Part shown: positions 13,724 through 59,437 of the stretch, one piece after another | Numbering within the stretch: the first letter of the stretch is position 1 | Layout: each line of letters opens with the position of its first letter | Notes under the pieces: generated by a model | What the model was told of the DNA's origin: nothing | What the model saw: only the letters and a program-made list of their open reading frames with translations | Database searches by the model: none | Program-made: the position numbers and the translations under genes | Origin: a virus | Direction: 5' to 3' (one strand) | DNA length: 64,000 nucleotides | Virus record (IMG/VR): IMGVR_UViG_3300045988_183612

Positions 13724-14092
13724 ATGGTAACAACAGCAACAGTGTCAACAAATGCAATAAATAAGACAAATAAGACAATAAAGGTAGGACTCAAAAGATG
13801 TCCATTTTGTAGAAAGTGGGACTCAATGAGTATTATCCCTATTAAAACTAATGGCTTTAAGATTACTTGCGATTACGCAAAAGGAGGCTGTGGAGCCAGC
13901 GGTGGAATGGGTAAGACTAAAGATGAAGCAATAAAAATGTGGAATCTAAGAGTTCCTATTGATCATTTACGTCATGATGTTTCTGAAAAATCATATCATA
14001 ATAGTTTAATGAATTGTGAAGTAATTCCTTCTACGGAAATATATGATGCATTAAATGATGAACAAGAAAAATATTTAGAAATGAATATTTAA
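13724..14092 (+). CDS. Lar-like restriction-alleviation zinc-ribbon protein
   Basis: Zinc-ribbon motif CPFC...C..C, followed by DEAIKMWNLR, which matches the Lar-family C-terminal AIxAWNxR signature. Confidence 0.45.
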   Translation: MVTTATVSTNAINKTNKTIKVGLKRCPFCRKWDSMSIIPIKTNGFKITCDYAKGGCGASGGMGKTKDEAIKMWNLRVPIDHLRHDVSEKSYHNSLMNCEVIPSTEIYDALNDEQEKYLEMNI

Positions 14093-19106: not shown

Positions 19107-19180
19107 TATATCCAAGTTTTAATAGTGTCAGAAATGGCACTATTTTTTTTGTGTAAGAAAAAAAATTTTTTTGTCTGTCA

Positions 19181-19191
19181 TAAAGATATAT
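19181..19191 (+). promoter_or_regulatory. TTCTGTCATAT-family motif
   Basis: GTCTGTCATAA, 35 bp before ATG 19218. GTGTAAG sits 24 nt upstream. Confidence 0.55.
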
Positions 19192-19217
19192 ATAAGATTT
19201 TCATAGCGAGGTTATTT

Positions 19218-20984
19218 ATGACAAAACAAAAATTTTTAAATTGTGCAGATAAAAATGAGAAGAGAGCTATTAAATTTATAACAGAACAAGAGAATAAGCA
19301 GTATCAATGCCATTATCAATTTGTTGCATTAAATGTTAATGATTCATCTAAGACAGCAGTTTTTAGGTCTAATGCAGAAGATGTGCTTTCTAATCTCAAT
19401 AAGGATTATTTGAACGAAGAATATAATAGATATATGTGCATTAACCCATTAAAGACATCTGTTGTTTCAGATAAAGAATTCTACGACAAAATTGAAATAG
19501 GTTTTTCTACTTCAGGGTATAGTACTGGTAAGACACCACATAGTAGAATACAAAAGCGAATGGCTAGGTGTGAAAAAAATATATTCTGTCTAAAAGCTAT
19601 ATGTGTAAGAATAATATGGCCAGAAGAAGATTATAAAGACAATATTCAATATTTCCTCAATAACTATGATTGTATTTTAGGAGATGCCCCAAAGCCTAAT
19701 ATTATTAACGCTATATATAATGAAGTTGAATTAATATATGGCATTGAAGAATTATCAAAGGATCTCTTGTGGAAATATAATCTGGTAGGAAAGGTATTGT
19801 CACAGGTTATAAATAAACAAATAGACATGAATGGAATTTCATTAGGTTTCCCTGAAGTAGATAAAGAGTCAGTAAAATGTGACTCTTTAATTCGTGTACC
19901 TGGAACTTATGATGCAATAAATTTTGAGACTCCAACATTATTATTTATTAATAAGAATAAAACAACTGTACATGATTTATATAACACATTACATCCTTTA
20001 TATTTTATAAAGAATAATGATAGATTGCATGATATTGTAAACTATGAAGATTCAGACAGCAAAAACAGCAATAAATTAAACCTTCCTTCATATTTACAGG
20101 ATAATTTAATAAACAGAATAGAATTCCTTAATAATTTTGCTAAGGATGCTGTTCCTAAGTATGTTGATAAATTAGATTTTGCCTATTACGCATATAATAC
20201 TTTAAGAGCAGCATATGATGATGAAACTGCCAAAAAGGAAATGCTGAAGCTAACAAATAAAACTTCAGAGCCATTATCAATTGATGAATTAGAATTATTT
20301 ACATTCAAAGATTTTAATAATGTTAATAATGTGAATTGGTGTAAATTTAAAACAACGACCTTCATAAAAGGGTTAGGATTGGATCCACTTACAGCAAGAA
20401 GAGAATATGGCCTTAAAAATCTTGAAGGCTATAGAATGGAAGAAAAGTTAAAGAAAAAAGAACAGGTAGAAAGAAACAAAAAACGAAGAGAATTTAAATA
20501 TAATAAAATTGTAGAATTATATGCAATGGGTAAAACATATAAGGAAATAATGAAAGAATTGCATGTATCTTCAAATGTAATTTCACGAAAGCTTACTGAA
20601 GATGCTGACAGACTTGAACAGATAAAAAATAATATCAAAGAGGTTAATAAAAGAAAAATTGTTAGCGCTACACGGAGGAATCCCATAGTAGACAAACAAA
20701 AGCTTGTAAAAAAATATAAAGAAAAGTTAGATACAATAAAAAAATATGCAAACAAATATAGAATACTTAAAAAGAAAATAAAGGAATTTATTTTAAATTC
20801 AAGCTTTTTTAATTTATTTGAAAAAATATATTATCAGGATAAAAAATGGGGACTATGGAAAGATGATGTTGACGATATCATCTTTAAACTTGATGCCTGC
20901 GGATTTATGAATAAACATAGCTTAAGTCATAATGACGTAAGTATTGCTCTTAATGCAAATTACAGGCTAGTATTTGATTTATAA
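19218..20984 (+). CDS. hypothetical protein with C-terminal HTH-like segment
   Basis: Start at MTKQK with an RBS. Motif at 19181 lies 35 bp upstream. C-terminal KIVELYAMGKTYKEIMKELHVSSNVISRKL resembles a sigma region-4/LuxR-type helix-turn-helix. Confidence 0.5.
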   Translation: MTKQKFLNCADKNEKRAIKFITEQENKQYQCHYQFVALNVNDSSKTAVFRSNAEDVLSNLNKDYLNEEYNRYMCINPLKTSVVSDKEFYDKIEIGFSTSGYSTGKTPHSRIQKRMARCEKNIFCLKAICVRIIWPEEDYKDNIQYFLNNYDCILGDAPKPNIINAIYNEVELIYGIEELSKDLLWKYNLVGKVLSQVINKQIDMNGISLGFPEVDKESVKCDSLIRVPGTYDAINFETPTLLFINKNKTTVHDLYNTLHPLYFIKNNDRLHDIVNYEDSDSKNSNKLNLPSYLQDNLINRIEFLNNFAKDAVPKYVDKLDFAYYAYNTLRAAYDDETAKKEMLKLTNKTSEPLSIDELELFTFKDFNNVNNVNWCKFKTTTFIKGLGLDPLTARREYGLKNLEGYRMEEKLKKKEQVERNKKRREFKYNKIVELYAMGKTYKEIMKELHVSSNVISRKLTEDADRLEQIKNNIKEVNKRKIVSATRRNPIVDKQKLVKKYKEKLDTIKKYANKYRILKKKIKEFILNSSFFNLFEKIYYQDKKWGLWKDDVDDIIFKLDACGFMNKHSLSHNDVSIALNANYRLVFDL

Positions 20985-29252: not shown

Positions 29253-29525
29253 ATGAATAAATTTGATTTTACGCCATGGAGAAAGGCTTTAGCAGTAGAA
29301 GTTAACAAAAATAAAGAGGATAATTATCCATATGTATGCAAAAATGTTTCTTCATCAGAAGGCATTGAATTAATAAACAGTGAAGAAAATGTTTTTTATT
29401 TAGCTCCTGGAGATCATTTATATGCTACAAAGGATCTAGTTGTTGAATCCCTTAAAGCAATTGGCGGATATTGCAGCAATGCGCATATTGAAGGTAATGA
29501 AGTTGTTGTGGAGGCAGTTGCATGA
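29253..29525 (+). CDS. hypothetical protein (90 aa)
   Basis: AAAGGAGG RBS, motif at 29208. Confidence 0.5.
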   Translation: MNKFDFTPWRKALAVEVNKNKEDNYPYVCKNVSSSEGIELINSEENVFYLAPGDHLYATKDLVVESLKAIGGYCSNAHIEGNEVVVEAVA

Positions 29526-30460
29526 AATATGATAGACAAGCTATTGTAGATAGTATTAATATGCTAGATGTTATAAACAAGCTTAATATTAAAGTTTCAA
29601 ATGCTACTGCAGGGACAGATATAGTTACTGGGAATAAACGAGAAATTTTATGTCCGTTTCATAATGATAAACATTTTGGTTCAGCAAGTATATATGTGGA
29701 TTCAAAAAAGCATTTTAAGGGAATCCATTGCTTTGCTTGTGGAGAAAGTTGGAATGTAATTAAACTGGTCCAATTAAAAACAGGGCTAAATTATGGACAG
29801 ACATTAAATTGGCTTGCTGAATTATGTCCTGGAGATAAGTCAAATTACGCATTAGAAGAAGCAAATAATAAATCATCTTGGGGTATTGTTTCTATAGATT
29901 CTTCAGGAAAGTTATCTGTTAAAAATAATAATTCTAATGAAGAAAAATCTAAAGCCATTGACAATCCTATCAAAAATATATTTACATCTGAAGACTTAAA
30001 ATTAATAGGAATTCAGGATTATCCATTAAATATATTTGATAAAAATGGTTCTATAATAGATTGTTTGCAATATGAACCGTCTATAATTGATATACCGGAT
30101 AATTGTGTTGCAGAAAAGGATTATGTTTATAGTACAGATAAGAAAGCTTCAAATGTAAAATTTGACGAAACTCTTGAAGCCGTTTGGTTAATAAAAAAAA
30201 ATGGCATTAACTCAAGATTTACATTCAATGATTTGATTCAGGAAAATCCAGATTGTGCAGTAAATTTGGCTTGTACACGAATTGTTTATCTAATTAAAGA
30301 TAAACAGGTTATCTTGAATAAATTAGCAGGTTCTTCAAATAAAGTCTTAGTTAATGTTGTTCATTTAACGAAGAAAGAAATAAAGCGACTTAAAGAATTA
30401 TATAACAAAATCATGAATGCATGGCTTAAAACTGAAGAATTAAAAATTGAATATATTTAA
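29522..30460 (+). CDS. CHC2 primase-type zinc-finger protein
   Basis: CPFHNDKHFGSASIYVD...HCFACGESWNVIKL matches the DnaG-type CHC2 zinc finger. No TOPRIM domain recognised. ATGA overlap with the upstream gene. Confidence 0.55.
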   Translation: MKYDRQAIVDSINMLDVINKLNIKVSNATAGTDIVTGNKREILCPFHNDKHFGSASIYVDSKKHFKGIHCFACGESWNVIKLVQLKTGLNYGQTLNWLAELCPGDKSNYALEEANNKSSWGIVSIDSSGKLSVKNNNSNEEKSKAIDNPIKNIFTSEDLKLIGIQDYPLNIFDKNGSIIDCLQYEPSIIDIPDNCVAEKDYVYSTDKKASNVKFDETLEAVWLIKKNGINSRFTFNDLIQENPDCAVNLACTRIVYLIKDKQVILNKLAGSSNKVLVNVVHLTKKEIKRLKELYNKIMNAWLKTEELKIEYI

Positions 30461-37005: not shown

Positions 37006-37902
37006 ATGAGTATTTTATCAAACCTATTAGCGGCTTTTAAACCAGGACAGCAGTTTACATTAAAAGAAGCATATGCTGTTAATCTTTCATATCAAAAAGA
37101 GTCAGTCAGAGCAAGAATTTATGAAAATTTAGGTAAAGAATTTAAGAAACTATCAAAAGGACTATATGTAACAGATGATGTAGTTCTTATTGAAGGCGAT
37201 GGAAGAGATTTATCTGTTTTTGAAAGTGAATCTATGGATTGCATAATTACTGATCATCCATGGGATGATAAGAAATCTAATAATGGTGGAACAAGACATT
37301 TAGCTCAGTATGATTGTTTTAAATATACCTTATCAGATTTTATGGAAAAAGCTAGGGTATTAAAGGAAGGTAGTTTTTTAGTAGAAATTTTACCTGCAGA
37401 AAATGAAAATAATTTTGATTATTTATATGAGATTAAGAAGATGGCAGAACAGGCAGGATTTAAGTATTATGCAAAAGTTGCATGGAAAAAAGGTACATTT
37501 GTAAGTAATACAGGAAGAAAAGCTAAAAATACAGAAGACATAATGATTTTTAGTAAAGGTAAGCCAAGAGCATTAAGACCAGATAAGCAAAGAGGCGTTA
37601 TAAATGGAGTACCTACCAGATTTATGAGTGGAGCTAATGGAATGCTGCCTACTGAATTTAATGTGCAGGCCATTCCTAATAAATTAAAGAATGTCCAGAC
37701 AGAAAAACCAGTTGCTTTATTTGAACAGTTGTTAGAATATTTTACTTTACCTGGTGAATTAGTTTTAGATCAATTTGCAGGTAGTGGTGTTACAGGAGAA
37801 GCATGTCTTAATAAAAAAAGGAAATGTATTTTAATTGAAAAATGTAAGGAGCATGTAGCAAGTATAATAACCCGGTTAAATTTGCAATGTGCAGTAATTT
37901 AA
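37006..37902 (+). CDS. DNA methyltransferase (N6-adenine/N4-cytosine, beta-class)
   Basis: Motif IV-like IITDHPW precedes motif I FAGSGVTGEA, which is the beta-class order. AAAGGAG RBS. Confidence 0.65.
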   Translation: MSILSNLLAAFKPGQQFTLKEAYAVNLSYQKESVRARIYENLGKEFKKLSKGLYVTDDVVLIEGDGRDLSVFESESMDCIITDHPWDDKKSNNGGTRHLAQYDCFKYTLSDFMEKARVLKEGSFLVEILPAENENNFDYLYEIKKMAEQAGFKYYAKVAWKKGTFVSNTGRKAKNTEDIMIFSKGKPRALRPDKQRGVINGVPTRFMSGANGMLPTEFNVQAIPNKLKNVQTEKPVALFEQLLEYFTLPGELVLDQFAGSGVTGEACLNKKRKCILIEKCKEHVASIITRLNLQCAVI

Positions 37903-42992: not shown

Positions 42993-44786
42993 ATGTCAAT
43001 GTTTGAACATGTAAAAATTGGAGAATTAACAAAAAAGGTTATTGAGTCAGGAGTTACAGTGTGTGAACATAACCATCCAGGAGGCTCTTTGTTTGATGCC
43101 GTAGATGAACCTAAACGTTATTTAGATGCTGCATTTAATGCAGGATATACTAAATTTGCTGTTACGGACCATGCATCATTTTCAGCAATGCAAACATGTA
43201 TTGATTACGCTAAGAAAATAAGTACTGAGGAACATCCATTTAATATCATTTATGGCGTAGAGGCTTATATTGAAGTGCCACCATTTAAGATAAATGAACA
43301 GATTGGCCATATGATTATGTTAGCCACTTCAGAAAGAGGCAAGCATATTATTGATAAGTTAAATTCTAAGGCTTCTGAAAAAAGAATGGGAAAGCCTGTT
43401 ATTACAATATCAGATTTAAAGAAATATAACTTTAACGGTGATATAATAGCAACTTCAGCTTGCGTTTCGGGTGCACCAGCTCTGCAATTATTATCAGATG
43501 ATGTTTTGGATAAAATGATTAACAGAGAAAGAAAAGCACAGCAGCATACTACTGAAAAAGACGAGCTAGTTATACATGATTGTATAAGTCCTGATGATAA
43601 AGAATATCTTTCAGCTAAAGATGAATTTGAAAGGGTATCGGCAGATTTAGATGAATTGATTAATATTCGTGATTCCAAGGAACTTAAATCAGAAAGAACA
43701 CAGATTTCAAGAAAATTAAGAGATGCAAGAAAGTGTTTAAATGATGATGATCCAGAGCTTATTAAACTGATTAACGAATATGAGGAGATAAATAATAAAA
43801 TTCTGGAAGCTAAAGATAAAATTCCTAATGTCAGAAAATTAGTTAATGCTAAGAAAGCCGAGTTGAAGGATATAAGTCTTAAGGTAGAGGAATACATTAA
43901 TCATGAAAATAAGATACAGCATTATGAATCATTAAAGAAAAGCCCAATAGAATTAATGTCTGAAGCAGAAAAGACAATGCTTTTTTATCAGGAAATTTTT
44001 GGAGCAGGTAATTATTACATTGAAGTTCAGAATCATGGGCTTGAAATGGAAAGCAGAACATATCCTGTGTTAGCTCAGTTAGCAAGGAAGCATAATATTC
44101 CATTAGTTGCTGCTAATGATGCACATATGGCAGATAATTCTGATAGAAGTATTGATATGCGTAATGTAGCTAAATTTTTAAGATTTATTAAGATAAGTGA
44201 GTCGGAATCAGATAAAGAGTTATATGTAAAGACACCTTATGAACTTGCTCAGGCCTTATCAGCTATATTAACAGATGATCAGGTTGCAGAAGCACTCAAT
44301 AACTTAAATGTAATTGGAAAAAGATGTGCTTATATTCCAGAAAAATCTAATCATTATCCAGTATTTGATAAGAATAAGGATTCAAACGAATTATTAAGAT
44401 CTGAAGCAATTAAGGGAATTAATTGGAGATATCCTAACGGAAAAGGATGGGATGAAGAACATCAGAAACGAATGGAATACGAACTTAATATTATCATTCA
44501 GATGGGCTTTGCCGATTATCATTTAATTGTAAAGGACTTCCTGGAATATGGAAGAATTTGTGGATTAGTACCTATGGATAAACTATCAGAAGTACCTTTA
44601 ACAATTGAAGGTGCAAAAGAGTATGTTAAGGCTCACAATTATAATACCGGAATTGGAATAGGCATTGGAAGAGGTTCAGGTGCCGGTTCATTGGTTACAT
44701 ATTTACTTGGTATTACCGGAATTGATCCATTTAAGTATAATCTGATTTTTGAACGATTCTTAAATCCAGAAAGAGTAAGTATGCCT
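42993..44786 (+). CDS. dnaE: DNA polymerase III alpha (DnaE-type) exon 1: PHP domain with coiled-coil insertion
   Basis: PHP motifs [33 protein letters not shown]...[10 protein letters not shown]. Exon ends ...[13 protein letters not shown] at the conserved DnaE SMP|DIDIDF junction. Read-through into the intron gives a spurious tail to 44834. Confidence 0.8.
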
Positions 44787-45211
44787 AAATATATTGGGCG
44801 TTCAGCGTGGACTCTAACTCAGAGGTGTGCTTAATATTTTATTATTAAGTGCTAACGGTAGAAGTTGAATAAGACTGCTATATAAAGTGTCACAACAGGA
44901 TATATAGCTTAACCCATAGACGAAGCAGCTTCGTAAGAGAACCTACGGTCCTAATATTTTTATATAAAAGATATTGAAGGATAGCAGGCGATACCGTGCT
45001 AAGATTATAAATAATATTATATAAATAAAAAATTGTTCGTATATAATATTATTTATTTTAAAGTGTAACGACTATCCTTTTTAAGGAGTACAACTGAGAA
45101 TGGTTACAGTTGGAAGTGCGTTGAAATATAATATTAATAATATTATATTGAGATATAGTCTAATCCCACTTATACAAGTGTTAAAGTACTACGAAAGTAG
45201 GGGTATATTTG
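44787..45211 (+). other. group I self-splicing intron (no ORF) in dnaE
   Basis: 5' exon ends in U and the intron ends in G. Conserved core elements AACGACTATCC (R, P7 5' strand) and GAGATATAGTCTAA (S, P7 3' strand) are in the right order. Flanking exons join into the continuous conserved DnaE sequence. Confidence 0.75.
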
Positions 45212-45967
45212 GATATCGATAGTGATCTTGCTCTTGGAGTAAGAGAAAAGACAATTGAGTATGTAAGAGCTAAATATGGTAGTGAAGCTGTTGTTGGAAT
45301 TATTACAGAATCAAGACAGCAGGCTAAAGGTGCTATCAGAGATGCTGCAAGATATTATGGAAAGAAAGCCTATGATGATGAAAAGAAATTCTTATCTTTA
45401 GGAGATCAGATTCGTAAGAAAGTGCCTGCTAAAGCAACTAATTTTGAAGATATTGTTGGCATGAAAGATACTAATAGGGTTGATGAATTAGGCATTAATA
45501 TTCAGGACAGCGTTTCTTTGTTAGATTTTTTAAAGGATGAATATAATAGTAATCCAGATGCTATTTCTATTCTTAATATTGCAGCTCATTGCGAAGGTAT
45601 GCTTACGACATACGGACAACATGCCGCAGGTGTTATTATTTATGATAGTAATGATGTTACTGATTATATTCCTATTAGAGATGGAAAAAAGGGAATTAAA
45701 ACTACAGAAATGGACATGATTCAGTGCGAAGCTAATGGATTATTAAAAATGGATTTTCTTGGATTAAAAACTCTTACAATTATTACTGACACACTCAGAA
45801 TGATTCAGAGAGATACAGGAGAAGTAATTGATGTAATGAATATTCCATTAGAGGGTCCTAAAGCTGATAAGGTATACAAAGAAGTATATGCAAAAGGAAG
45901 AACTAAGAATGTTTTCCAGTTTGAGTCAGCCGGTATGAGGAATAACCTTAAGAAGTTATGCTCATAG
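45212..45967 (+). CDS. dnaE: DNA polymerase III alpha exon 2 (palm region)
   Basis: DIDSDLALGVREKTIEYVRAKYG...AIRDAARYYG, MDFLGLKTL and VFQFESAGMRNNLKKL match the DnaE palm region. Ends in TAG-TGA, followed by a terminator. Confidence 0.8.
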   Translation, partial: DIDSDLALGVREKTIEYVRAKYGSEAVVGIITESRQQAKGAIRDAARYYGKKAYDDEKKFLSLGDQIRKKVPAKATNFEDIVGMKDTNRVDELGINIQDSVSLLDFLKDEYNSNPDAISILNIAAHCEGMLTTYGQHAAGVIIYDSNDVTDYIPIRDGKKGIKTTEMDMIQCEANGLLKMDFLGLKTLTIITDTLRMIQRDTGEVIDVMNIPLEGPKADKVYKEVYAKGRTKNVFQFESAGMRNNLKKLCS

Positions 45968-51638: not shown

Positions 51639-53324
51639 ATGAATAAAACAGGTATTGAAGATTTAATAGCAATGAATGCTTTATATCGTCCTGGTCCTGA
51701 AAAGTTTATACCTGATTTCATAGAAGGTAAAAAGGATGCATCTAAGATTAAATATTTATGTCCTCAATTAGAGCCAATTTTGTCAACTACTTATGGACAG
51801 ATAGTTTATCAGGAACAGGTAATGCAGATTGTTCGTGATTTAGCAGGATATACATGGGGGCGTTCTGATTTAGTCCGTAGAGCTATGTCAAAAAAACATC
51901 AGGATGAAATTGATGCTGAAAGACACACTTTTGTATATGGCAATGCTGATACTAAAAAAGAAAATGAAGCATTAGTACCAGGTTGTATTTCAAATGGAAT
52001 ACCAGAAGAAATTGCTCATAAAATCTGGGATGCGATGGTTGATTTTGCTAAGTATGCTTTTAATAAGTCACATGCCTCTGCTTATGCTGTTACATCATAT
52101 TGGACTGCTTTTCTTAAGTATTATTATCCGGCTTATTATCTTACAAATGTAATAAATCATACTGATAAGATTGATGAAGTCGCTGATGATATTAGTGATG
52201 CTCTTGATTTTGGAGTAAAGGTATTGCCTCCGGACATTAATGCTTCAAATTTACATTGTGATGTTGTAGATGGAAATATTTTGTATGGTCTGAGTAATAT
52301 TAAGAATGTTGGAGCAGAAGCAGCTAAAATTATTGAAGATAGAAATGTTAATGGAGAATATTCTGATATTAAGGATTTTATCAAACGAACAAATATTAAT
52401 GCAGAAGCATTAAGTTCCTTAATTAAAGCAGGTGCTTTTGATTGCCTTGGTTATACAAGAACAATGATATCATTAGATATGATTTGTATGAAAGAAATTC
52501 AGGATACAATCAAGAAAATCAGAGAGAAGAGTAAGTTTATTGAAAACGCAAGTAAAGTTATTGAATTTGTGGAAGATTATATTGATCTTGATGAGTTTAA
52601 GGAAAAAATTTCAGAAGAAAATATTTCCTTTCAAGTTACTTCAAAAAAGATGCCAACTAAGGATTCCATAATTAAACGTATCAATTCAGCTAAGACAGTT
52701 ATAGAAAGCTTAGAAGATGATCTTGAAAATATAGATATTGATTATGTAGAAGATGATTTAGGTCAGATTCTAAATGATGAAAAAGAAGTGTTAGGTGTTT
52801 ATATTACAGGGCATCCAATTGATGAGTATAATATTTATACAGATCCCATTTCTGATATTTCAACAGAAGTTAATGATGTATCTGGTATAATTAAAAATCT
52901 TGTTATAAGAAAGGACAGAAATGGATACGAATGGGTAACTTTTGAGGTAGAAGATAAAACAGGTTCTATTAATGGTGTATGTTTTTCTAAGGATTATGCA
53001 AATATTAGAGACTTACTTGTTAATGATGCTAAATTATGTTTATCAGGGAAAATTCAAGTAGATGATTTTAGATCTTCAGATGACGAAACTGTATATCAGA
53101 TTATTGTTAAATCTGTTAAACCTTTAAAGAAAAATAAGTCTTCATATAGATTTATTTGTACTGTTTCCGAAGTAAACGATGTTCTTGATTCTATTAATGA
53201 ATATCTGGTGGACGTTGATGGAGATTATTTATATTGGCTTGATTCAACAACTGGAATTGAACATTTATGTAAGAAATTCATTAACCCTGATATGTCAGCC
53301 CCTTCAATAGTACGCAAATGCTAA
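51639..53324 (+). CDS. dnaE: DNA polymerase III alpha C-terminal piece (fingers, HhH, OB) as a separate ORF
   Basis: ALYRPGP and NKSHASAYAVTSYWTAFLKYYYP are DnaE motifs. Has its own motif (51593), AAAGGAGA RBS and ATG. The N-terminus abuts the end of exon 2 in the DnaE alignment. Confidence 0.8.
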   Translation: MNKTGIEDLIAMNALYRPGPEKFIPDFIEGKKDASKIKYLCPQLEPILSTTYGQIVYQEQVMQIVRDLAGYTWGRSDLVRRAMSKKHQDEIDAERHTFVYGNADTKKENEALVPGCISNGIPEEIAHKIWDAMVDFAKYAFNKSHASAYAVTSYWTAFLKYYYPAYYLTNVINHTDKIDEVADDISDALDFGVKVLPPDINASNLHCDVVDGNILYGLSNIKNVGAEAAKIIEDRNVNGEYSDIKDFIKRTNINAEALSSLIKAGAFDCLGYTRTMISLDMICMKEIQDTIKKIREKSKFIENASKVIEFVEDYIDLDEFKEKISEENISFQVTSKKMPTKDSIIKRINSAKTVIESLEDDLENIDIDYVEDDLGQILNDEKEVLGVYITGHPIDEYNIYTDPISDISTEVNDVSGIIKNLVIRKDRNGYEWVTFEVEDKTGSINGVCFSKDYANIRDLLVNDAKLCLSGKIQVDDFRSSDDETVYQIIVKSVKPLKKNKSSYRFICTVSEVNDVLDSINEYLVDVDGDYLYWLDSTTGIEHLCKKFINPDMSAPSIVRKC

Positions 53325-53436: not shown

Positions 53437-54348
53437 ATGATACTTAGTAACAACAACAGTAATATTAAGGAATTAAGAAATAAAAAAAATAAGCATGATT
53501 TAAATTCTTATATGGATTTTATGGCAAAAAACAAAATGAAAAGTAATTCTTTCTTTTCAAAATCAAAACAGTATATAAAGATTTTTATTCCATTTATTAT
53601 TTCTGTTTTTATAATTTTATTTTCTATGTTTATTGCAACATTTATAGACAGTCTATTAAATATGTATATGAATGATGCAGGAGGAATTTCAACTAAAATA
53701 GATTATGAAGGATTTCGATTAATTTACACAATATCAACATATACATTAATGTTTGTTATGTGCATTATTTGTATAAAAAGCTCATTTTACAATTATAAAA
53801 AAGATTTGTTTATGAAAAATAAATTAGTAGTAAATTGGAATTTTGTATTTTGTTTCATATTAACTTCTGTAATATTGCAGCTTATTTCAGGAATTCAAAT
53901 GCATTTTGTAAATGTATCAAATATTGATTATGGAAGTTTAGGAATAAAAACAATTATATCTACAATAATAGCAACTTTTGTGGCACCTATTATTGAGGAA
54001 TTGACTTTTAGATATATAATTTATGGCTATGCATATAAAGCAAGCAACAATAAATTATGTGCAAATATAATCCAAGCAGTTTTATTTGGAATAATTCATT
54101 TTAATTTTATTTTATTCCCTATATATGCTTTTGGCGGATATTTGTTAGGTGCTGTAAGAGATAAATATGGTATTAAACTTAGCAGCTTATATCATATTCT
54201 AATAAACTGTGTGGCATTAATACCATTTACGTTTTTTATAACAAATATATATTTACAGGTATGCATTTTAATAGTCTGCATAATGAGTTTAATTTATTTT
54301 GTAATTAAGTGTTTTGAAAATATCAATATAGAAATTAAGGAGCAATAA
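53437..54348 (+). CDS. CPBP-family intramembrane metalloprotease (second copy)
   Basis: IEELTFRYIIYG, FGIIHF. Multipass membrane protein. GGAGG RBS. Confidence 0.75.
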   Translation: MILSNNNSNIKELRNKKNKHDLNSYMDFMAKNKMKSNSFFSKSKQYIKIFIPFIISVFIILFSMFIATFIDSLLNMYMNDAGGISTKIDYEGFRLIYTISTYTLMFVMCIICIKSSFYNYKKDLFMKNKLVVNWNFVFCFILTSVILQLISGIQMHFVNVSNIDYGSLGIKTIISTIIATFVAPIIEELTFRYIIYGYAYKASNNKLCANIIQAVLFGIIHFNFILFPIYAFGGYLLGAVRDKYGIKLSSLYHILINCVALIPFTFFITNIYLQVCILIVCIMSLIYFVIKCFENINIEIKEQ

Positions 54349-54351
54349 TTT

Positions 54352-54747
54352 ATGGAAACAAATATGAATAATGAATTAAAAAATAAGTCTATAAGTGATA
54401 TCCTTGAAGCTTCTTCAACGGATTTATATGAATGGTATTTAATTAATTTTAAGAAAGAAATTCCTAGATCAGATGAAATAGATTTATTGGAAATAGGAAA
54501 TTTATTGAGTGAAGTAGGAAATTATTTTACCTATTTTTCCTCAATGCATTCTATTTTAGATTCAATGGTAAAAGAAATGAAATTACACAAAGAGTCTTCA
54601 GATAAATGTAAAGAGCTTATGATTAAACGAGATATATTAGGAACCTTTGAAGAGCAATCTAAATTTACATATAATGCAATTAGTAGAATATGTACAATGA
54701 AAATAGAAGCAAATAATGAATTAAAAATGCTAGGACATCAATGTTAA
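54352..54747 (+). CDS. hypothetical protein
   Basis: AAGGAG RBS. Immediately follows the CPBP gene. Confidence 0.45.
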   Translation: METNMNNELKNKSISDILEASSTDLYEWYLINFKKEIPRSDEIDLLEIGNLLSEVGNYFTYFSSMHSILDSMVKEMKLHKESSDKCKELMIKRDILGTFEEQSKFTYNAISRICTMKIEANNELKMLGHQC

Positions 54748-54759
54748 GAGGAGATTTTT

Positions 54760-55788
54760 ATGGCAGATAAGAATTTATTATTAAATAAAAAAAACAATAA
54801 AGATGAATATGTTGATGAATTATTTGATACAAATAAACCAATAGAAAACATAAATATTTTATCAGAGGATAATTATACCGATATTTTAAATGATAAAGAG
54901 ATTTTAAATGAAAAAGAGAAACTATTATTAGAAAATAATATAACTTATTATATTAAATCATTCGCTGATTATCCGGTTTTATCCAAAGATGAAACTCTTA
55001 AATTATTTGAAGAGATAAAAAAACATCCTAAAAAGAAAAAAGAAATAACCGAAAAATTGATTTTATCTAATATGCGTTTAGTCATCAGTATTGCTAAAGC
55101 CGTTACAGCTAAAACGCAAAGTTTTGAAATGGATGATTTATGTCAGGCCGGTATTTTCGGATTATACAGAGCTATACAAATGTTTGATTATAAATTAGGA
55201 TATGCATTTTCAACTTATGCAACTCATTGGATTAGACAGAGTATATATAGAGAATTAGCCAATTATGATTTATTAGTTAGATTCCCTGTACATGTAAGAG
55301 AACAGGATTCTTTTGTTAAGACTACATTTGTGGATTTAACTAATAAACTTCAAAGAAAACCTACAATTGATGAATTATATGATGTAGTAAAACAAAGATA
55401 TCCTCTTTTAACTAAAGAAATGCTTGTACATATTCAGAGCTTTAATGAATTGGTTTCATTAGATGCACCTATTCAAAGTGATGAAGGCCATGACGATTCG
55501 TGTTTGGCTGATTATATAGAAGCTCCTGAACCTAAAGTTGAAGATACGATTATTCAAAAAGAAATGAATGAACTGCTTTGGAAAGAAGTTGAAGATTGTC
55601 TCACTCCTAGAGAATTATATGTAATTAAGAGTAGAATGGGATATGGTTCAAAGGTTAAAACTTTAAAAGATATAGGTACTGAATGGAATGTTTCCAGAGA
55701 ACGAATCAGACAAATTGAATCAAAAGCAATAAAAAAGATTAGAGTTCGTTTCAGACGGAAAGGATATAGTATACAATCTTTTATGTAA
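54760..55788 (+). CDS. sigma-70 family RNA polymerase sigma factor
   Basis: Region 2 ILSNMRLVISIAKAV and FSTYATHWIRQSIYRELAN. Region 3 RFPVHVREQD...KPTIDEL. Region 4 LTPRELYVIKSRMGYG..KTLKDIGTEWNVSRERIRQIESKAIKKIR. Confidence 0.85.
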   Translation: MADKNLLLNKKNNKDEYVDELFDTNKPIENINILSEDNYTDILNDKEILNEKEKLLLENNITYYIKSFADYPVLSKDETLKLFEEIKKHPKKKKEITEKLILSNMRLVISIAKAVTAKTQSFEMDDLCQAGIFGLYRAIQMFDYKLGYAFSTYATHWIRQSIYRELANYDLLVRFPVHVREQDSFVKTTFVDLTNKLQRKPTIDELYDVVKQRYPLLTKEMLVHIQSFNELVSLDAPIQSDEGHDDSCLADYIEAPEPKVEDTIIQKEMNELLWKEVEDCLTPRELYVIKSRMGYGSKVKTLKDIGTEWNVSRERIRQIESKAIKKIRVRFRRKGYSIQSFM

Positions 55789-56628
55789 TATATAAATAAA
55801 ATGCAGTTATCAATAGGTAGCTGTATTTTTTTATGATTACACTTCCTTTAAGTGTAATATGTCATACACCTTCTTCAAAGCCCTTCTATTATTTTCTTTT
55901 TCATTGATACGCTTTTTATTATTAAAATATAAAAATTAGAGCCTTATATAATACATTTGATTATTCCTTAATAGCGTTTTAAGACTTAATATAATAACCG
56001 CCAGAATATTATTAAGGATTAAAAGCGTATAACTATTATTGTTATATCCTTATACAATATCATTTATCAGCTTAATACATTTTGTGTTTATTTCCCTGGC
56101 AATTCCTTACCTGTCTCTAGCAAGCACTTCATTTATCCCAATTAATGCCTTTAATATACCAATAAATCATATAATTTTCTTATATATAATATATGATAAT
56201 TACAAAAATTATGATTACTAGATTCCTGTAAATCTATTCTTCGCCCTGCAAATGCCTTAGTAAGCCCAATAATCCCATTTCTGTCTCAATAGATGCATTC
56301 ATATACACTAATTCTTTCTTATTTGCTCTTAGATCTATTTCCTTTACTCTATCATTTCTATATATGTTCCCAGTAATTCCATTAATTAACTTTAGTAAAT
56401 AATAATTATATCCCATTAATCAGTTATATTTATTTTTCTCACTAATTATACAGTTTATTGTACCCAATTAATCCATATATAATTGCTAATATTACCAATT
56501 ACATGTTATCAAATTAACATTTTTTATCTCTTAAATCAGCATATAATAACTACATCATGGTATTATTCTGACACATATAAGGCATTTTATTGGCTATGCA
56601 ACGGATAATACATTACTACATATTGTTA

Positions 56629-56872
56629 TCATTATTACATTTATGTATTAAATATTTAGCTATATATTGTTAATTTTATTGCACAAATTTTTCTATTCTA
56701 TAACATAATGTTGTTAGTTTTAATGTATATTAAATCATATTTTATATCTATATATTGTTATTATTTTTGTATCTTAGCTATATTTTAATAAATCTTAAAT
56801 AACTATATATTGTTAATAAAGTTAACATATTAAACTAATATACAACAATAAACGTACAATATATTGTTATTA
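56629..56872 (+). repeat. iteron-like direct repeats TATATATTGTTA x5
   Basis: Copies at ~56629, 56665, 56752, 56807 and 56861. They lie inside a 1.2-kb ORF-free AT-rich region that also carries CCCAATTAAT repeats (56132, 56421, 56466) and TTATCCCA DnaA-box-like words. Confidence 0.6.
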
Positions 56873-57021
56873 TTTTTCCCAAGTAAAGGCATAGTATACC
56901 CAATAAAGTGCTTAGAAGAACACAAAAACGGGATATTTTAATAAATAAAAGGCATTTACATTTAGTTACTGACTTATTTTGATACACATCAATTATTTTA
57001 TGTAAAATAATAATTCATTTT

Positions 57022-57032
57022 TTCTGTCATAT
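57022..57032 (+). promoter_or_regulatory. TTCTGTCATAT-family motif
   Basis: TTCTGTCATAT, 44 bp before ATG 57068. Confidence 0.6.
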
Positions 57033-57067
57033 TAAAAATATAACTAAATAAAAGGAGAACTAATTAT

Positions 57068-58003
57068 ATGCAAAAAATGAATTACGAAGATTTTCTTAAA
57101 CATCTTAAATTCGAATTACTTCAAAATATTGAAGATATTACACCAACAGATATAGTTTACACATCAGATAAGCTTATTTTTCATTCTAAAAATCAGTTTA
57201 TGCGTCCCTTAGAATTTAAATTAAATCAATTATATAAACAATATTTAAATAATTCGTCAATAGAAGAAATTGCATTGTCAATATCTGAAGCATTTTATAG
57301 AAACAAAAATTCTAATGGTAGTGAATATAAACTTAATAATTTAGCTCCAGAAATTAATTCAAATGATATAAAACACTATATTATGCCTCAATTAATACAA
57401 AAGCCGGACAATATGGAAGATTTAAGCGGCATTCCTCATAAGCCATTTTATGAGTTCGAAATAATTTATAATGTGATCATACCTAAAGAAAATTCAGAAG
57501 GTACAATGTTTGTAATTGATAATAACTATATGAGGGACATACTGAAAATTAATGAAAACGAATTGTACAATCTTGCAATTCATTCAATATATTCCAACAA
57601 ATATTTTATCAGTGTATTAGGTGATTATTTTTTGACGCAACTGGCAGATGATGATAATTATGAAAAGACAAAGAAAGAATTATCTTTTCTAAGTAATTCT
57701 GGTGGGTTTGAGAGCAAATGTATTAAAGGAATATATGCAATTCAAAATGTAATCGACTTTTATAATACAAGTGCTATTCTGAACAATAATTTGCTTAAGA
57801 ATATTTCAGAGAAACTGAAAACAAATTTATACATTATTCCTGTTACAGCACATATTCTGTTGATATGTAAATACAGTGAATTTACTCCTGAAGAAATTCA
57901 AATGGCATTAAAGATATTTGGTATTCAGGAAGAAGAAGATTATCTGAGTTCAGATATATTTATATTTAACAAAGAATCAGGTGAATTAAATAAAATAGAA
58001 TAA
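57068..58003 (+). CDS. hypothetical protein (311 aa)
   Basis: AAAAGGAGAAC RBS, motif at 57022. Confidence 0.5.
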   Translation: MQKMNYEDFLKHLKFELLQNIEDITPTDIVYTSDKLIFHSKNQFMRPLEFKLNQLYKQYLNNSSIEEIALSISEAFYRNKNSNGSEYKLNNLAPEINSNDIKHYIMPQLIQKPDNMEDLSGIPHKPFYEFEIIYNVIIPKENSEGTMFVIDNNYMRDILKINENELYNLAIHSIYSNKYFISVLGDYFLTQLADDDNYEKTKKELSFLSNSGGFESKCIKGIYAIQNVIDFYNTSAILNNNLLKNISEKLKTNLYIIPVTAHILLICKYSEFTPEEIQMALKIFGIQEEEDYLSSDIFIFNKESGELNKIE

Positions 58004-58042
58004 ATAATACAATATAATTTAAAACAGAAAGGAAAGAGAAAA

Positions 58043-58585
58043 ATGATTATAACTATATTAATAAATGTAGTCTTTGTTGTTTCATTGATTATGTTTAGTT
58101 TTTATTTTGTGACTGCAATCAAATACGATATAACTCTTATTGATAAGGCATATATGAGCTTACTTATAGGAGTATTCCCGGGAATTGTTAATGTAAGTTT
58201 TAAAAATTCTATAGCTACTGTGATAGTTTTATTAATTAGTGTAACGGCTCTTATATGGATAGCTTTTACAAAATTTTTTGAGAAAGAACATAAAAAAGAA
58301 ATTCTTTATGATTGTTTGCTTTATGATATATCACAGGATGATTTAAAGAAATTCAGACATATGAGCCGTAATAAACAGATTGCTTTTCTAAAGTCTGTTA
58401 TTACAACTGTAGAATCAGCAGAAAAAGAAGAGTCCACTGATGAGAACGGTAATAAGGTTATTACAACCAAGACAGTAATACAGCAAGTACCTTTAATTGA
58501 AAATGACGAAGAATTAGCAGAGTATGAACCAATTCTTAGAAAAAATAAAGTATGGAGCATTTATTATGACGCTTACAGGAAATGA
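58043..58585 (+). CDS. small membrane protein (AFLKS...YEPIL family)
   Basis: Two N-terminal TM helices. Shares QIAFLKS and YEPILR with 59147..59437. Confidence 0.5.
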   Translation: MIITILINVVFVVSLIMFSFYFVTAIKYDITLIDKAYMSLLIGVFPGIVNVSFKNSIATVIVLLISVTALIWIAFTKFFEKEHKKEILYDCLLYDISQDDLKKFRHMSRNKQIAFLKSVITTVESAEKEESTDENGNKVITTKTVIQQVPLIENDEELAEYEPILRKNKVWSIYYDAYRK

Positions 58586-58739
58586 TGCTGTTGATTTTTT
58601 TTGAATCAATGCAGCACCCAGACGAAAGGCAGCAGGAAATATTATCTAAGATTAAAAGCAATATAACCTTAAGGAATATTCCTAATGGGTATGAAGCTGA
58701 TATAAAGAATTTGGACATGTCTTTTTTAGGAGAAAAATA

Positions 58740-59015
58740 ATGACATTTAAAGAAGCTAGAAAAGAAGCAAGAAAAATAGCACAGCAAACTGGATATTGGG
58801 GATATATTTTTAAGGATAAATCCGGGGAATGGTTTACATCAGACTGTAATAATTTTACTTCTGATAATTCATTCTATGTAAATAAGGATGGTAAGATCCT
58901 TAACATGCAAAAATATGAGAAGATAAAAAAGAAGCTTGATAAGCAGGGAATTAAAGGACTGTGTTTATTTTCACCCGAATTAATGAAATATATTGAACAG
59001 CATGGTGATTATTAG
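58740..59015 (+). CDS. hypothetical protein
   Basis: GGAGAAAAATAATG RBS. Confidence 0.45.
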   Translation: MTFKEARKEARKIAQQTGYWGYIFKDKSGEWFTSDCNNFTSDNSFYVNKDGKILNMQKYEKIKKKLDKQGIKGLCLFSPELMKYIEQHGDY

Positions 59016-59146
59016 AAATATGATAAAAAAATTACAATATATAGTGATTTTTCTTTAATTTAAGTTAGTACATTTACACTACTTAAATATAAAATAGTGT
59101 GGATTTTACACTATTTAGATAGAAGATAATAAATGGGGGGCTATTT

Positions 59147-59437
59147 ATGAAGATTATTATACTTTCGTTTGTTATAACTTTTATGGTAATAATGCTGTTT
59201 AAATCAACTATTGATTTAATTGACAGAGTAAAAGAGAAGTCATTTCTATATAGTCTTATTGAGCAATGCACTGATTGCAGCCATGATGAGATTATTACCT
59301 TTAAGAAGCAGTTATCAAGGGAAGAGCAGATGGCATTTTTAAAGTCACTTAAGTATAAGGAGTCTTATAAGAATGGATTTCTTATTACAGAAGAGATAGA
59401 TTTAAAAATATATGAACCAATACTAAAAAGGAGATAA
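59147..59437 (+). CDS. small membrane protein (AFLKS...YEPIL family)
   Basis: TM helix plus QMAFLKSL...YEPILKRR. Paralog of 58043..58585. Confidence 0.5.
   Translation: MKIIILSFVITFMVIMLFKSTIDLIDRVKEKSFLYSLIEQCTDCSHDEIITFKKQLSREEQMAFLKSLKYKESYKNGFLITEEIDLKIYEPILKRR

Follow-up and report, generated by a model that had tools for sequence, protein, structure and literature searches.

The widest gene-free stretch within a 64,000-nucleotide section of the IMG/VR virus record IMGVR_UViG_3300045988_183612 (the whole section is referred to as the window hereafter) extends over positions 55789-57067 (1279 nt) and is bordered by a sigma-factor gene (54760-55788) and a DUF5688 gene (57068-58003). The record is reasoned to stem from a huge (~0.59 Mb) conjugative element of the human gut, the hosts of which are presumably Lachnospira-like bacteria, and the gene-free stretch was given an even chance of being its origin-of-transfer (oriT) region, provided with a phased array which would bind an accessory or regulatory protein in analogy to the stbDRs of plasmid R388. 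The stretch consists of an inverted-repeat block, a spacer and an array of near-palindromic sites, and this module was identified in the same order in all six lineages (A to F). As the gene of a MOBV relaxase is the one gene consistently tied to the module, origin of transfer is the better label for its inverted-repeat end. The original prediction had read the stretch as a candidate replication origin or partition site; it rightly recognised, in a mobile replicon, a non-coding site with phased repeats that acts in cis and binds protein, while the two specific labels found no support.

The inverted-repeat block (55837-55872) is built as TTACACTT-CCTTT-AAGTGTAA-TATGTCA-TACACCTT, whereby its three arms (TACACTT, AAGTGTA and TACAC(C)TT) are separated by loops of 5 and 8 nt. 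An 8-bp inverted repeat, TTACACTT/AAGTGTAA, had been noticed before and does exist, but it locates to 55837-55857 and not to 55846-55866. The second arm is common to two inverted repeats (IR1 and IR2), hence their hairpins are mutually exclusive, and arms 1 and 3 form a direct repeat. The 64 kb hold only two arm pairs of the type AGTGTA/TACACT within 14 nt, one in the block and one at the promoter of the relaxase gene (mob), with 0.03 expected by chance in each case. The core of the block, a 19-mer (55851-55869), is present as a single copy in the window even when up to three mismatches are allowed. Alignment of nine contexts revealed the invariant columns AAGTGTAA.A.GTCATACAC; the IR1 arm pair is kept in all nine of them, whereas its loop and stem extensions vary, the latter changing together (TTTT with AAAA). 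The flank 3' of IR1 is invariant on the + strand only, which is the pattern expected of a nick region, and the nick was predicted to lie near 55864/55865 on the + strand, 8 nt 3' of IR1.

This anatomy resembles the oriT of pMV158, which was reported to comprise three overlapping inverted repeats forming mutually exclusive hairpins, with IR1 located 8 nt 5' of the nick, a minimal oriT of IR1 plus 8 nt, IR2 arms that span the nick, outer arms that form a direct repeat, and a location overlapping the mob promoters (PMC5863519). Correspondingly, the block possesses overlapping and exclusive inverted repeats, IR1 followed by ~8 conserved nucleotides, IR2 arms spanning these, and a direct repeat of the outer arms. 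The relaxases belong to the same Pfam family (Mob_Pre, with MobM being the pMV158 member); in the sister lineages L076, L078 and L079 the module lies upstream of mob and overlaps its promoter, and the palindrome at the mob promoter of the window could serve autoregulation as in pMV158. Unlike these features of layout, the likeness of which was judged by eye, the sequences share no similarity, and no blastn match was obtained in PLSDB or phage records. Moreover, the pMV158 oriT measures ~43 nt and resides on a 5.5-kb rolling-circle plasmid, whereas here the core is joined to a 1.2-kb module on a 0.59-Mb element.

The six lineages were reached on different routes. The core sequence played no part in the finding of lineage A (further strains) and of lineages C to F: lineage C (L022) was reached via a homologue of the sigma factor with 51% identity, and lineages D, E and F (L078, L079 and L076, respectively) through protein alone, their relaxases being 52-56% identical to that of the window. 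A search with the exact 19-mer led to lineage B (L046 and others). The non-coding region of 0.8-1.5 kb directly upstream of the relaxase gene is taken up by the module in lineages D, E and F, the order being mob, a promoter of the TTCTGTCATAT type (described below), block, spacer, array and the promoter of a divergent gene. In L078 this divergent gene is a homologue of the window ORF (open reading frame) 1313-2194, which directly adjoins mob in the window. The neighbour of the L078 module thus equals the mob neighbour of the window, which indicates that the module was relocated as a unit in the window lineage. The genes next to the module differ between the lineages, the downstream side being occupied by DUF5688, small ORFs or the ORF 1313 homologue. 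Within the window, the promoter of the relaxase gene (TTCTGTCATAT, 1242-1252) is located on the minus strand. The tblastn matches of the relaxase fall on genes annotated as mobV, with at most 33% identity to the MobV proteins of plasmids. Close to the relaxase gene, with three small genes in between, lies a T4 coupling-protein gene of the VirD4 type; this coupling protein and a NERD protein are encoded just left of the window.

At the level of strains, 12 haplotypes of the region are 96.8-100% identical, much as is the case for the flanking genes. In some strains an additional insert of 1.4 kb lies between the sigma-factor terminator and the inverted repeat, and the 1.27-kb unit is intact in all of them. 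The insert holds small ORFs and was seen among L011, L013, L016 and L020, one of which also carries an IS3-type transposase. A further strain-level variant near the module is a trio of tyrosine recombinases downstream of it (L020 13505-17544 is among the sites listed), and two strains carry an IS605/TnpB insertion (L001, L003 19218-20324).

The original prediction had called the stretch the largest non-coding one of the window and free of ORFs, and both statements hold true: it is the widest gap between ORFs of at least 80 amino acids, the runner-up measuring ~810 nt, and stop codons, mostly TAA, occur 29-48 times per frame in all six frames. By the latter a hidden gene or an alternative genetic code was ruled out, and across all six lineages the longest stop-free run amounts to 59-117 codons. 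Searches for structured RNA with the covariance models of Rfam 15 gave no match at E<=1 in 54000-59000 and none at gathering score in the whole window, nor was any match at E<=0.1 obtained in L076, L078 or L079; no tRNA or tmRNA was found. What had been missed is the GC skew, which is strongly inverted in the region (-0.31) as compared to positive values elsewhere in the window. Most of the region is taken up by the spacer, the length of which varies from 580 to 915 nt across the six lineages; its composition is kept without any alignable sequence, the strand of the block showing 7-13% G, 17-24% C and 55-62% pyrimidine. In single-stranded form the + strand of the spacer is predicted to fold with -4.5 to -9.4 kcal/200 nt, the weakest folding of the window (mean -14.5, standard deviation 4.0, least stable value sampled elsewhere -5.4 kcal/200 nt), and the depletion of G on the presumably transferred strand explains why the spacer is nearly free of secondary structure. 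A discrete motif common to the spacers was sought and only weak signals (CCATT, ATTCC) were obtained. The spacer may be compared to Frpo/ssi and ssoA/ssoU elements, which are likewise strand-specific non-coding DNA beside oriT that is expected to act in single-stranded form (PMC11541004); unlike the spacer, the least foldable DNA of the window, these work via extensive hairpins.

The array of the window consists of seven near-palindromic 18-mers with the consensus ATAACWATATATWGTTAT, their spacings all being multiples of ~11 bp. Five direct repeats had been described for this part of the stretch, and indeed TATATATTGTTA occurs five times with at most one mismatch on one strand within 250 bp (56617, 56661, 56749, 56804 and 56858), a clustering far beyond chance, as the whole 64 kb holds only three further matches. 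The true unit is however the 18-bp near-palindrome, present in seven copies with start-to-start distances of 66, 44, 44, 44, 55 and 54, instead of the 36-87 bp given earlier. A second repeat, CCCAATTAAT, does not stand: the region holds two exact copies and not three, and 13 occurrences with at most one mismatch in the window compare to 11.8 expected, i.e., chance level. Across the six lineages, arrays of 6-9 near-palindromic 18-mers were identified with spacings of 43-45, 53-56, 65-67, 77 or 88 bp, again multiples of ~11; in lineages E and F the consensus ATAACWATATATWGTTAT has drifted to ATAACTAAGTACTGTTAT and ATACC..GGTAT. Among the 12 haplotypes, 3 of 126 positions vary within the palindromes as compared to 13 of 199 in the DNA between them, a difference which is suggestive but not significant. 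NrdR boxes were considered, as the core of the palindrome, CWATATATWG, resembles the NrdR consensus, but the outer ACAC/GTGT positions are unmatched. An isolated palindrome of the array type and a third, looser cluster of TACACT arms were identified upstream of ORF 59147-59437, and in lineage E (L079 6601-6618) a single palindrome is placed between the genes of the coupling protein and the NERD protein; these isolated palindromes and the third arm cluster look like operators for the same binding proteins.

The best-matching precedent for such an arrangement is R388, in which two sets of five 9-bp repeats with an 11-bp period lie beside oriT and are the target of StbA, a small DNA-binding protein that governs segregation as well as conjugation, positioning the plasmid and gating its transfer; single copies of the StbA motif reside in other promoters of the establishment region (PMC3098194). 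As for the stbDRs (and the related RP4 TraK and F TraM sbm sites), the array is an 11-bp-periodic set of repeats beside the putative oriT, on the leading or establishment side, and the isolated palindromes of the window and of lineage E are likewise found in other intergenic regions of promoter type. The two systems differ in that the stbDRs are contiguous 9-bp direct repeats, directly upstream of stbA and close to nic, whereas here 18-bp near-palindromes are placed 44-66 bp apart and an StbA-like gene was not identified. The features of the module and further features of the window are collected in Table 1.

Table 1. Positions of the module, its related sites and selected genes in the 64,000-nucleotide window
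Feature	Position	Strand	Remark
IR1-type hairpin, TTACACTT - CCTTT - AAGTGTAA	55837-55857	+	pattern match (0.03 expected by chance) and folding
IR2-type repeat, AAGTGTA - ATATGTCA - TACAC(C)TT	55850-55872	+	left arm shared with IR1; invariant columns
G-depleted, pyrimidine-rich, non-coding spacer	55873-56545	+	G 7%, C 18% on + strand
Palindromic site 1, ATAACTACATCATGGTAT	56546-56563	no strand	
Palindromic site 2, ATTACTACATATTGTTAT	56612-56629	no strand	
Palindromic site 3, TTAGCTATATATTGTTAA	56656-56673	no strand	
Palindromic site 4 (weak), ATAACATAATGTTGTTAG	56700-56717	no strand	placed by exact 44-bp register
Palindromic site 5, ATATCTATATATTGTTAT	56744-56761	no strand	
Palindromic site 6, ATAACTATATATTGTTAA	56799-56816	no strand	
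Palindromic site 7, CGTACAATATATTGTTAT	56853-56870	no strand	
Intrinsic terminator of the sigma-factor gene; left module boundary	55798-55829	+	14-pair stem followed by T-run; fold z = -5.0
Promoter-like element and ribosome-binding site of the DUF5688 gene (57068-58003); right module boundary	56998-57067	+	TTATGTAAAA at 56998-57007, TTCTGTCATAT at 57022-57032
MOBV (Mob_Pre, PF01076) relaxase gene, presumed to act in trans on the block	1-1206	-	Pfam E = 3.8e-30
Perfect palindrome AAGTGTATATATACACTT, arms as in block	1262-1279	no strand	9 nt upstream of the relaxase promoter
Isolated array-type palindrome ATTACAATATATAGTGAT	59031-59048	no strand	upstream of ORF 59147-59437
Third TACACT-arm cluster, looser	59075-59113	no strand	upstream of ORF 59147-59437
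PARP-like ADP-ribosyltransferase	4217-5503		
Lar-like restriction-alleviation protein	13724-14092		
DnaG-type zinc-ribbon protein	29522-30460		
Orphan N6/N4 DNA methyltransferase	37006-37902		

Based on this anatomy a course of transfer can be suggested. The MOBV relaxase would bind the IR1 hairpin and cut the + strand ~8 nt downstream of it, whereby the nick stretch A.A.GTCATACAC would be single-stranded and bracketed by IR2. The relaxase would then lead the cut strand, 5' end first and rightward, into the recipient, so that the relaxase and coupling-protein genes would enter last. The spacer would be the first 0.6-0.9 kb to enter and would represent an unstructured, single-stranded leader. 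The 18-bp near-palindromes, which share one face of the helix at a distance of 0.7-1.0 kb from the putative nick, may be bound by a dimeric protein encoded by the element, and the phased nucleoprotein complex thus formed beside oriT may act as a relaxosome or positioning complex, or else as a gatekeeper for the genes of the leading region. The palindrome left behind at the mob promoter would keep the autoregulation of the relaxase gene.

Several observations weigh against an origin of transfer. The position of the nick is a predicted and not a mapped one, and the similarity to the pMV158 oriT does not go beyond layout. In addition, the conserved flank is antisense to mob, while in pMV158 the coding strand of mob is transferred; here mob would be the last to enter. 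The module overlaps the mob promoter in lineages D, E and F, whereas in the window the relaxase gene lies 54.6 kb away, and the joint movement of the three parts could alternatively result from selection against break-points inside genes. The identity of the core in lineage B and in the chromosomal contexts (see below) is partly given by construction, as these were found by the exact 19-mer search. Furthermore, the block contains TGTCATAC, a variant of the element-wide promoter core, for which reason it may be a regulated promoter instead or in addition, and the arm cluster upstream of ORF 59147 fits the operator of a transcription factor equally well as a relaxase site. Finally, the distance of 0.7-1.0 kb between the array and the putative nick is much larger than that of known accessory sites, and no candidate for an array-binding protein was identified.

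Next to an origin of transfer, a vegetative replication origin was considered and is rather unlikely. Here, an initiator encoded elsewhere would bind the repeats, and unwinding or transcript priming would take place in the strand-biased spacer; the hairpin block would be a primosome or single-strand initiation site, and the origin would lie beside an oriT, as is the case in ColE1 and the IncQ plasmids. The conservation of 6-9 phased repeats in six lineages is in line with this idea, as is the location of the module at the end of a block of replication and recombination genes, and RNA-DNA hybrids would be favoured in the spacer, the purine-rich strand of which would give rise to a G-rich transcript on a C-rich template. 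A ~1.1-kb non-coding replicon that lacks a Rep of its own is reported for pLS20 and speaks for such an origin as well. The array moreover shares with iteron origins (P1, F, R6K, RK2) and with F sopC several phased sites of ~18-20 bp in non-coding DNA of a large low-copy replicon, and its 44-bp register resembles the 43-bp repeat of sopC. However, unlike in these systems, no adjacent rep or par gene, no DnaA box and no distinctive AT-rich unwinding element was recognised here, and conservation is confined to the 18-bp core of each unit instead of covering the whole repeat unit; the near-palindromes, 44-66 bp apart, are also unlike classic direct iterons of 17-22 bp. A Rep or initiator nearby, which the original prediction had proposed to look for, did not emerge: no Rep family was found in the scanned window ORFs (Pfam, PHROGs, NCBIfam) or in the flanks of any lineage, the neighbouring genes of which differ, and the DnaA family was not found in any scanned window ORF either. 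The DnaA-box-like words noted earlier could not be substantiated, as no match to TTATCCACA with at most one mismatch lies within the region, and the AT-richness is not distinctive either, since the GC content of 0.23 compares to 0.20-0.22 in several other 1-kb bins. At the scale of the window, neither skew nor gene orientation switches sign across the region, with positive skew and + strand genes on both sides. G-clusters, which had been considered with regard to R-loops, were dismissed, as the enrichment of CCC/GGG in the spacer is inconsistent between lineages.

A centromere-like partition site unrelated to transfer is decidedly improbable. The array would in this case be bound by a ParB-, ParR- or omega-type adaptor, F sopC being the model, with block and spacer being separate features. 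It would be expected that a low-copy replicon of 0.59 Mb needs active partition, the palindromes keep a fixed 44- or 66-bp register on one helix face, and the change of the site sequence in lineages E and F is as expected of plasmid-borne specificity determinants. Contrary to this, a scan for partition genes (ParA/ParB, ParM/ParR and TubZ/TubR) of the window and of 4-10 kb flanks in the other lineages revealed no ParA, ParB or ParM in the window or beside the module in any of the six lineages. The array moreover always occurs in the same order with block and spacer, and its isolated copies in regions of promoter type suggest a regulator. The array may have a partition-like or regulatory function, for which the R388 stbDRs next to an oriT are a precedent.

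It is similarly improbable that the region is purely transcriptional. According to this explanation the block would be a rightward promoter with the core TGTCATAC, controlled by an operator made of repressor half-sites, the long, untranslated, C-rich and G-poor leader would act as a Rho-type attenuator or insulator, and a second repressor, acting on the downstream operon, would use the palindromes as its operators. C-rich, G-poor and unstructured RNA is the classical substrate of Rho, the block does hold a variant of the element-wide promoter core TGTCATA(T), the same arms occur at the mob promoter and upstream of ORF 59147, and isolated palindromes are found in promoter regions. On the other hand, the module is intact in spite of downstream genes that change from lineage to lineage, in most lineages 150-250 nt separate the end of the array from the next promoter, and the exact core of ~20 nt in unrelated chromosomal contexts is unusual for an operator. 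Tandem host-type promoters were likewise rejected: the array sites resemble an extended -10 element, but their consensus TGTTAT(W)AAA has an A in place of the essential T at position -7, which renders them poor promoters, and a promoter scan performed no better than with shuffled sequences. As the last explanation, a decayed minus-strand gene, the inverted skew of which would be leftover coding composition devoid of present function, is hardly credible: GC and AT skew of the spacer minus strand do resemble the coding strands of the element, but every frame is dense in stops, the lineages agree in length, order and composition without having alignable sequence, the repeats are phased, and strains are as similar here as in the flanking genes.

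The core of the block was also identified outside of the element. The exact 19-mer occurs once each in the genomes of two cultured Eubacterium sp. strains (AM49-13BH and AF22-9; L031 and L032) and in a Lachnospira metagenome-assembled genome (L029), and furthermore in many metagenome contigs of 35-39% GC (L033-L072); in IMG/VR it was found only in the same contig and as two chance matches in one unrelated phage. These copies reside in surroundings that look like ordinary chromosome, namely downstream of the genes def, ptsI, fruA and fruK, upstream of a gene resembling exonuclease III and beside variable methyltransferase and chemotaxis genes, thereby often bordering variable gene content. They keep the hairpin and the invariant flank, and one chromosomal group keeps ~130 nt of a G-poor spacer which, judged by eye, is related to that of lineage E. 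No relaxase genes or remnants of such were detected by tblastn beside them. From their sequence these copies look like orphan oriT cores, and they point to Lachnospira-like bacteria as probable hosts. Two other identities of the core were rejected: a dif/cer or terminus site, as skew and gene direction are unchanged on both sides of the chromosomal cores, and a high-copy repeat resembling REP (repetitive extragenic palindromic) or MITE (miniature inverted-repeat transposable element) sequences, as no copy with 1-3 mismatches occurs in 880 kb of loci and each GTDB genome with a match holds one. An attachment-site core (attP/attB) was considered; no integrase is adjacent, and the chromosomal contexts keep ~130 nt of the spacer. 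Taken further, the module could be a composite transfer origin of an undescribed kind, in which MOBV nick site, G-free leader and distant phased array would form one cis-acting unit, the orphan chromosomal cores then being functional entry points for mobilising or recombining host DNA; this remains a doubtful extension of the oriT assignment.

As to the element itself, contigs of 586,600, 586,536 and 586,522 bp were obtained from three samples, and their near-equal length suggests a complete genome of ~0.59 Mb. The element is present in hundreds of human-gut assemblies, its sigma-factor protein being indexed in 470 blocks of public gut assemblies. Close relatives at the DNA level were found by blastn neither in PLSDB nor in phage records, and at the protein level plasmid and phage records yielded distant matches of MobV and DnaE only. 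The Hodor megaplasmids were considered and represent a different element, with 45-47% GC and 211-389 kb (PMC12934698). In contrast, the window has ~28% GC, and almost all of its genes are located on the + strand. Its gene products include a PARP-like enzyme, HD-GYP and GGDEF proteins, a class A penicillin-binding protein, an RpoD-type sigma factor, a Lar-like protein and an orphan N6/N4 methyltransferase, as well as replication and recombination proteins (DnaE in pieces, a DnaG-type zinc ribbon, RecA, RecJ, two UvrD and a 5'-3' exonuclease). No member of the ParA or ParB families was found in any scanned ORF of the window. The part right of the relaxase gene (1313-38000), with nearly all genes on one strand, resembles a leading or establishment region. 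For the DUF5688 protein no relative in the PDB and no literature were found, and a single-sequence AlphaFold2 model was unusable (predicted local distance difference test score, pLDDT, 45).

A promoter-like motif is distributed over the entire element. It consists of a T-run followed by TTCTGTCATAT and has 36 + strand copies at no more than one mismatch, nearly all of them 40-50 nt before start codons (examples are 5709, 8603, 16243, 21344, 29208, 32981, 40498, 41683, 51593, 57022, 62206 and 63284); at no more than two mismatches 131 matches compare to 56 expected. In a subset of copies TTATGTAAAA is found exactly 27 nt upstream, and the promoter block at the right edge of the module is kept in the diverged relative L022. 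In its sequence the motif resembles an extended -10 element whose position -12 is a C, and it may be read by the RpoD-type sigma factor encoded directly left of the module. A weak match (E = 4e-4) to a sigma-70/ECF superfamily model was obtained for a 619-amino-acid ORF (19125-20984), which may be a second, divergent sigma-like protein. The gene of the DNA polymerase III alpha subunit is split into three ORFs (42993-44834, 45209-45967 and 51639-53324). Strain comparison (L001, L009 and L010; L002, L003 and L022) revealed that the first two pieces form a single ORF of 849 amino acids in some strains, while in others an HNH_3 endonuclease ORF lies between them, which suggests a mobile insertion, possibly homing-endonuclease- or intron-like; no Rfam intron match was obtained.

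Provided that the module is an origin of transfer, its location would offer a handle for the assignment of hosts, for the tracking of transfer and for the development of vectors for Lachnospiraceae. If the G-free leader and the array serve transfer, they would be design features not described as yet for oriT regions, and as such they would bear on the establishment of very large plasmids in recipient cells. Should the composite origin hold true, the orphan cores would allow a 0.59-Mb plasmid to mobilise host chromosomal DNA, or to recombine with it, in the human gut. The putative orphan nick cores make chromosomal mobilisation directly testable in a dominant gut commensal.

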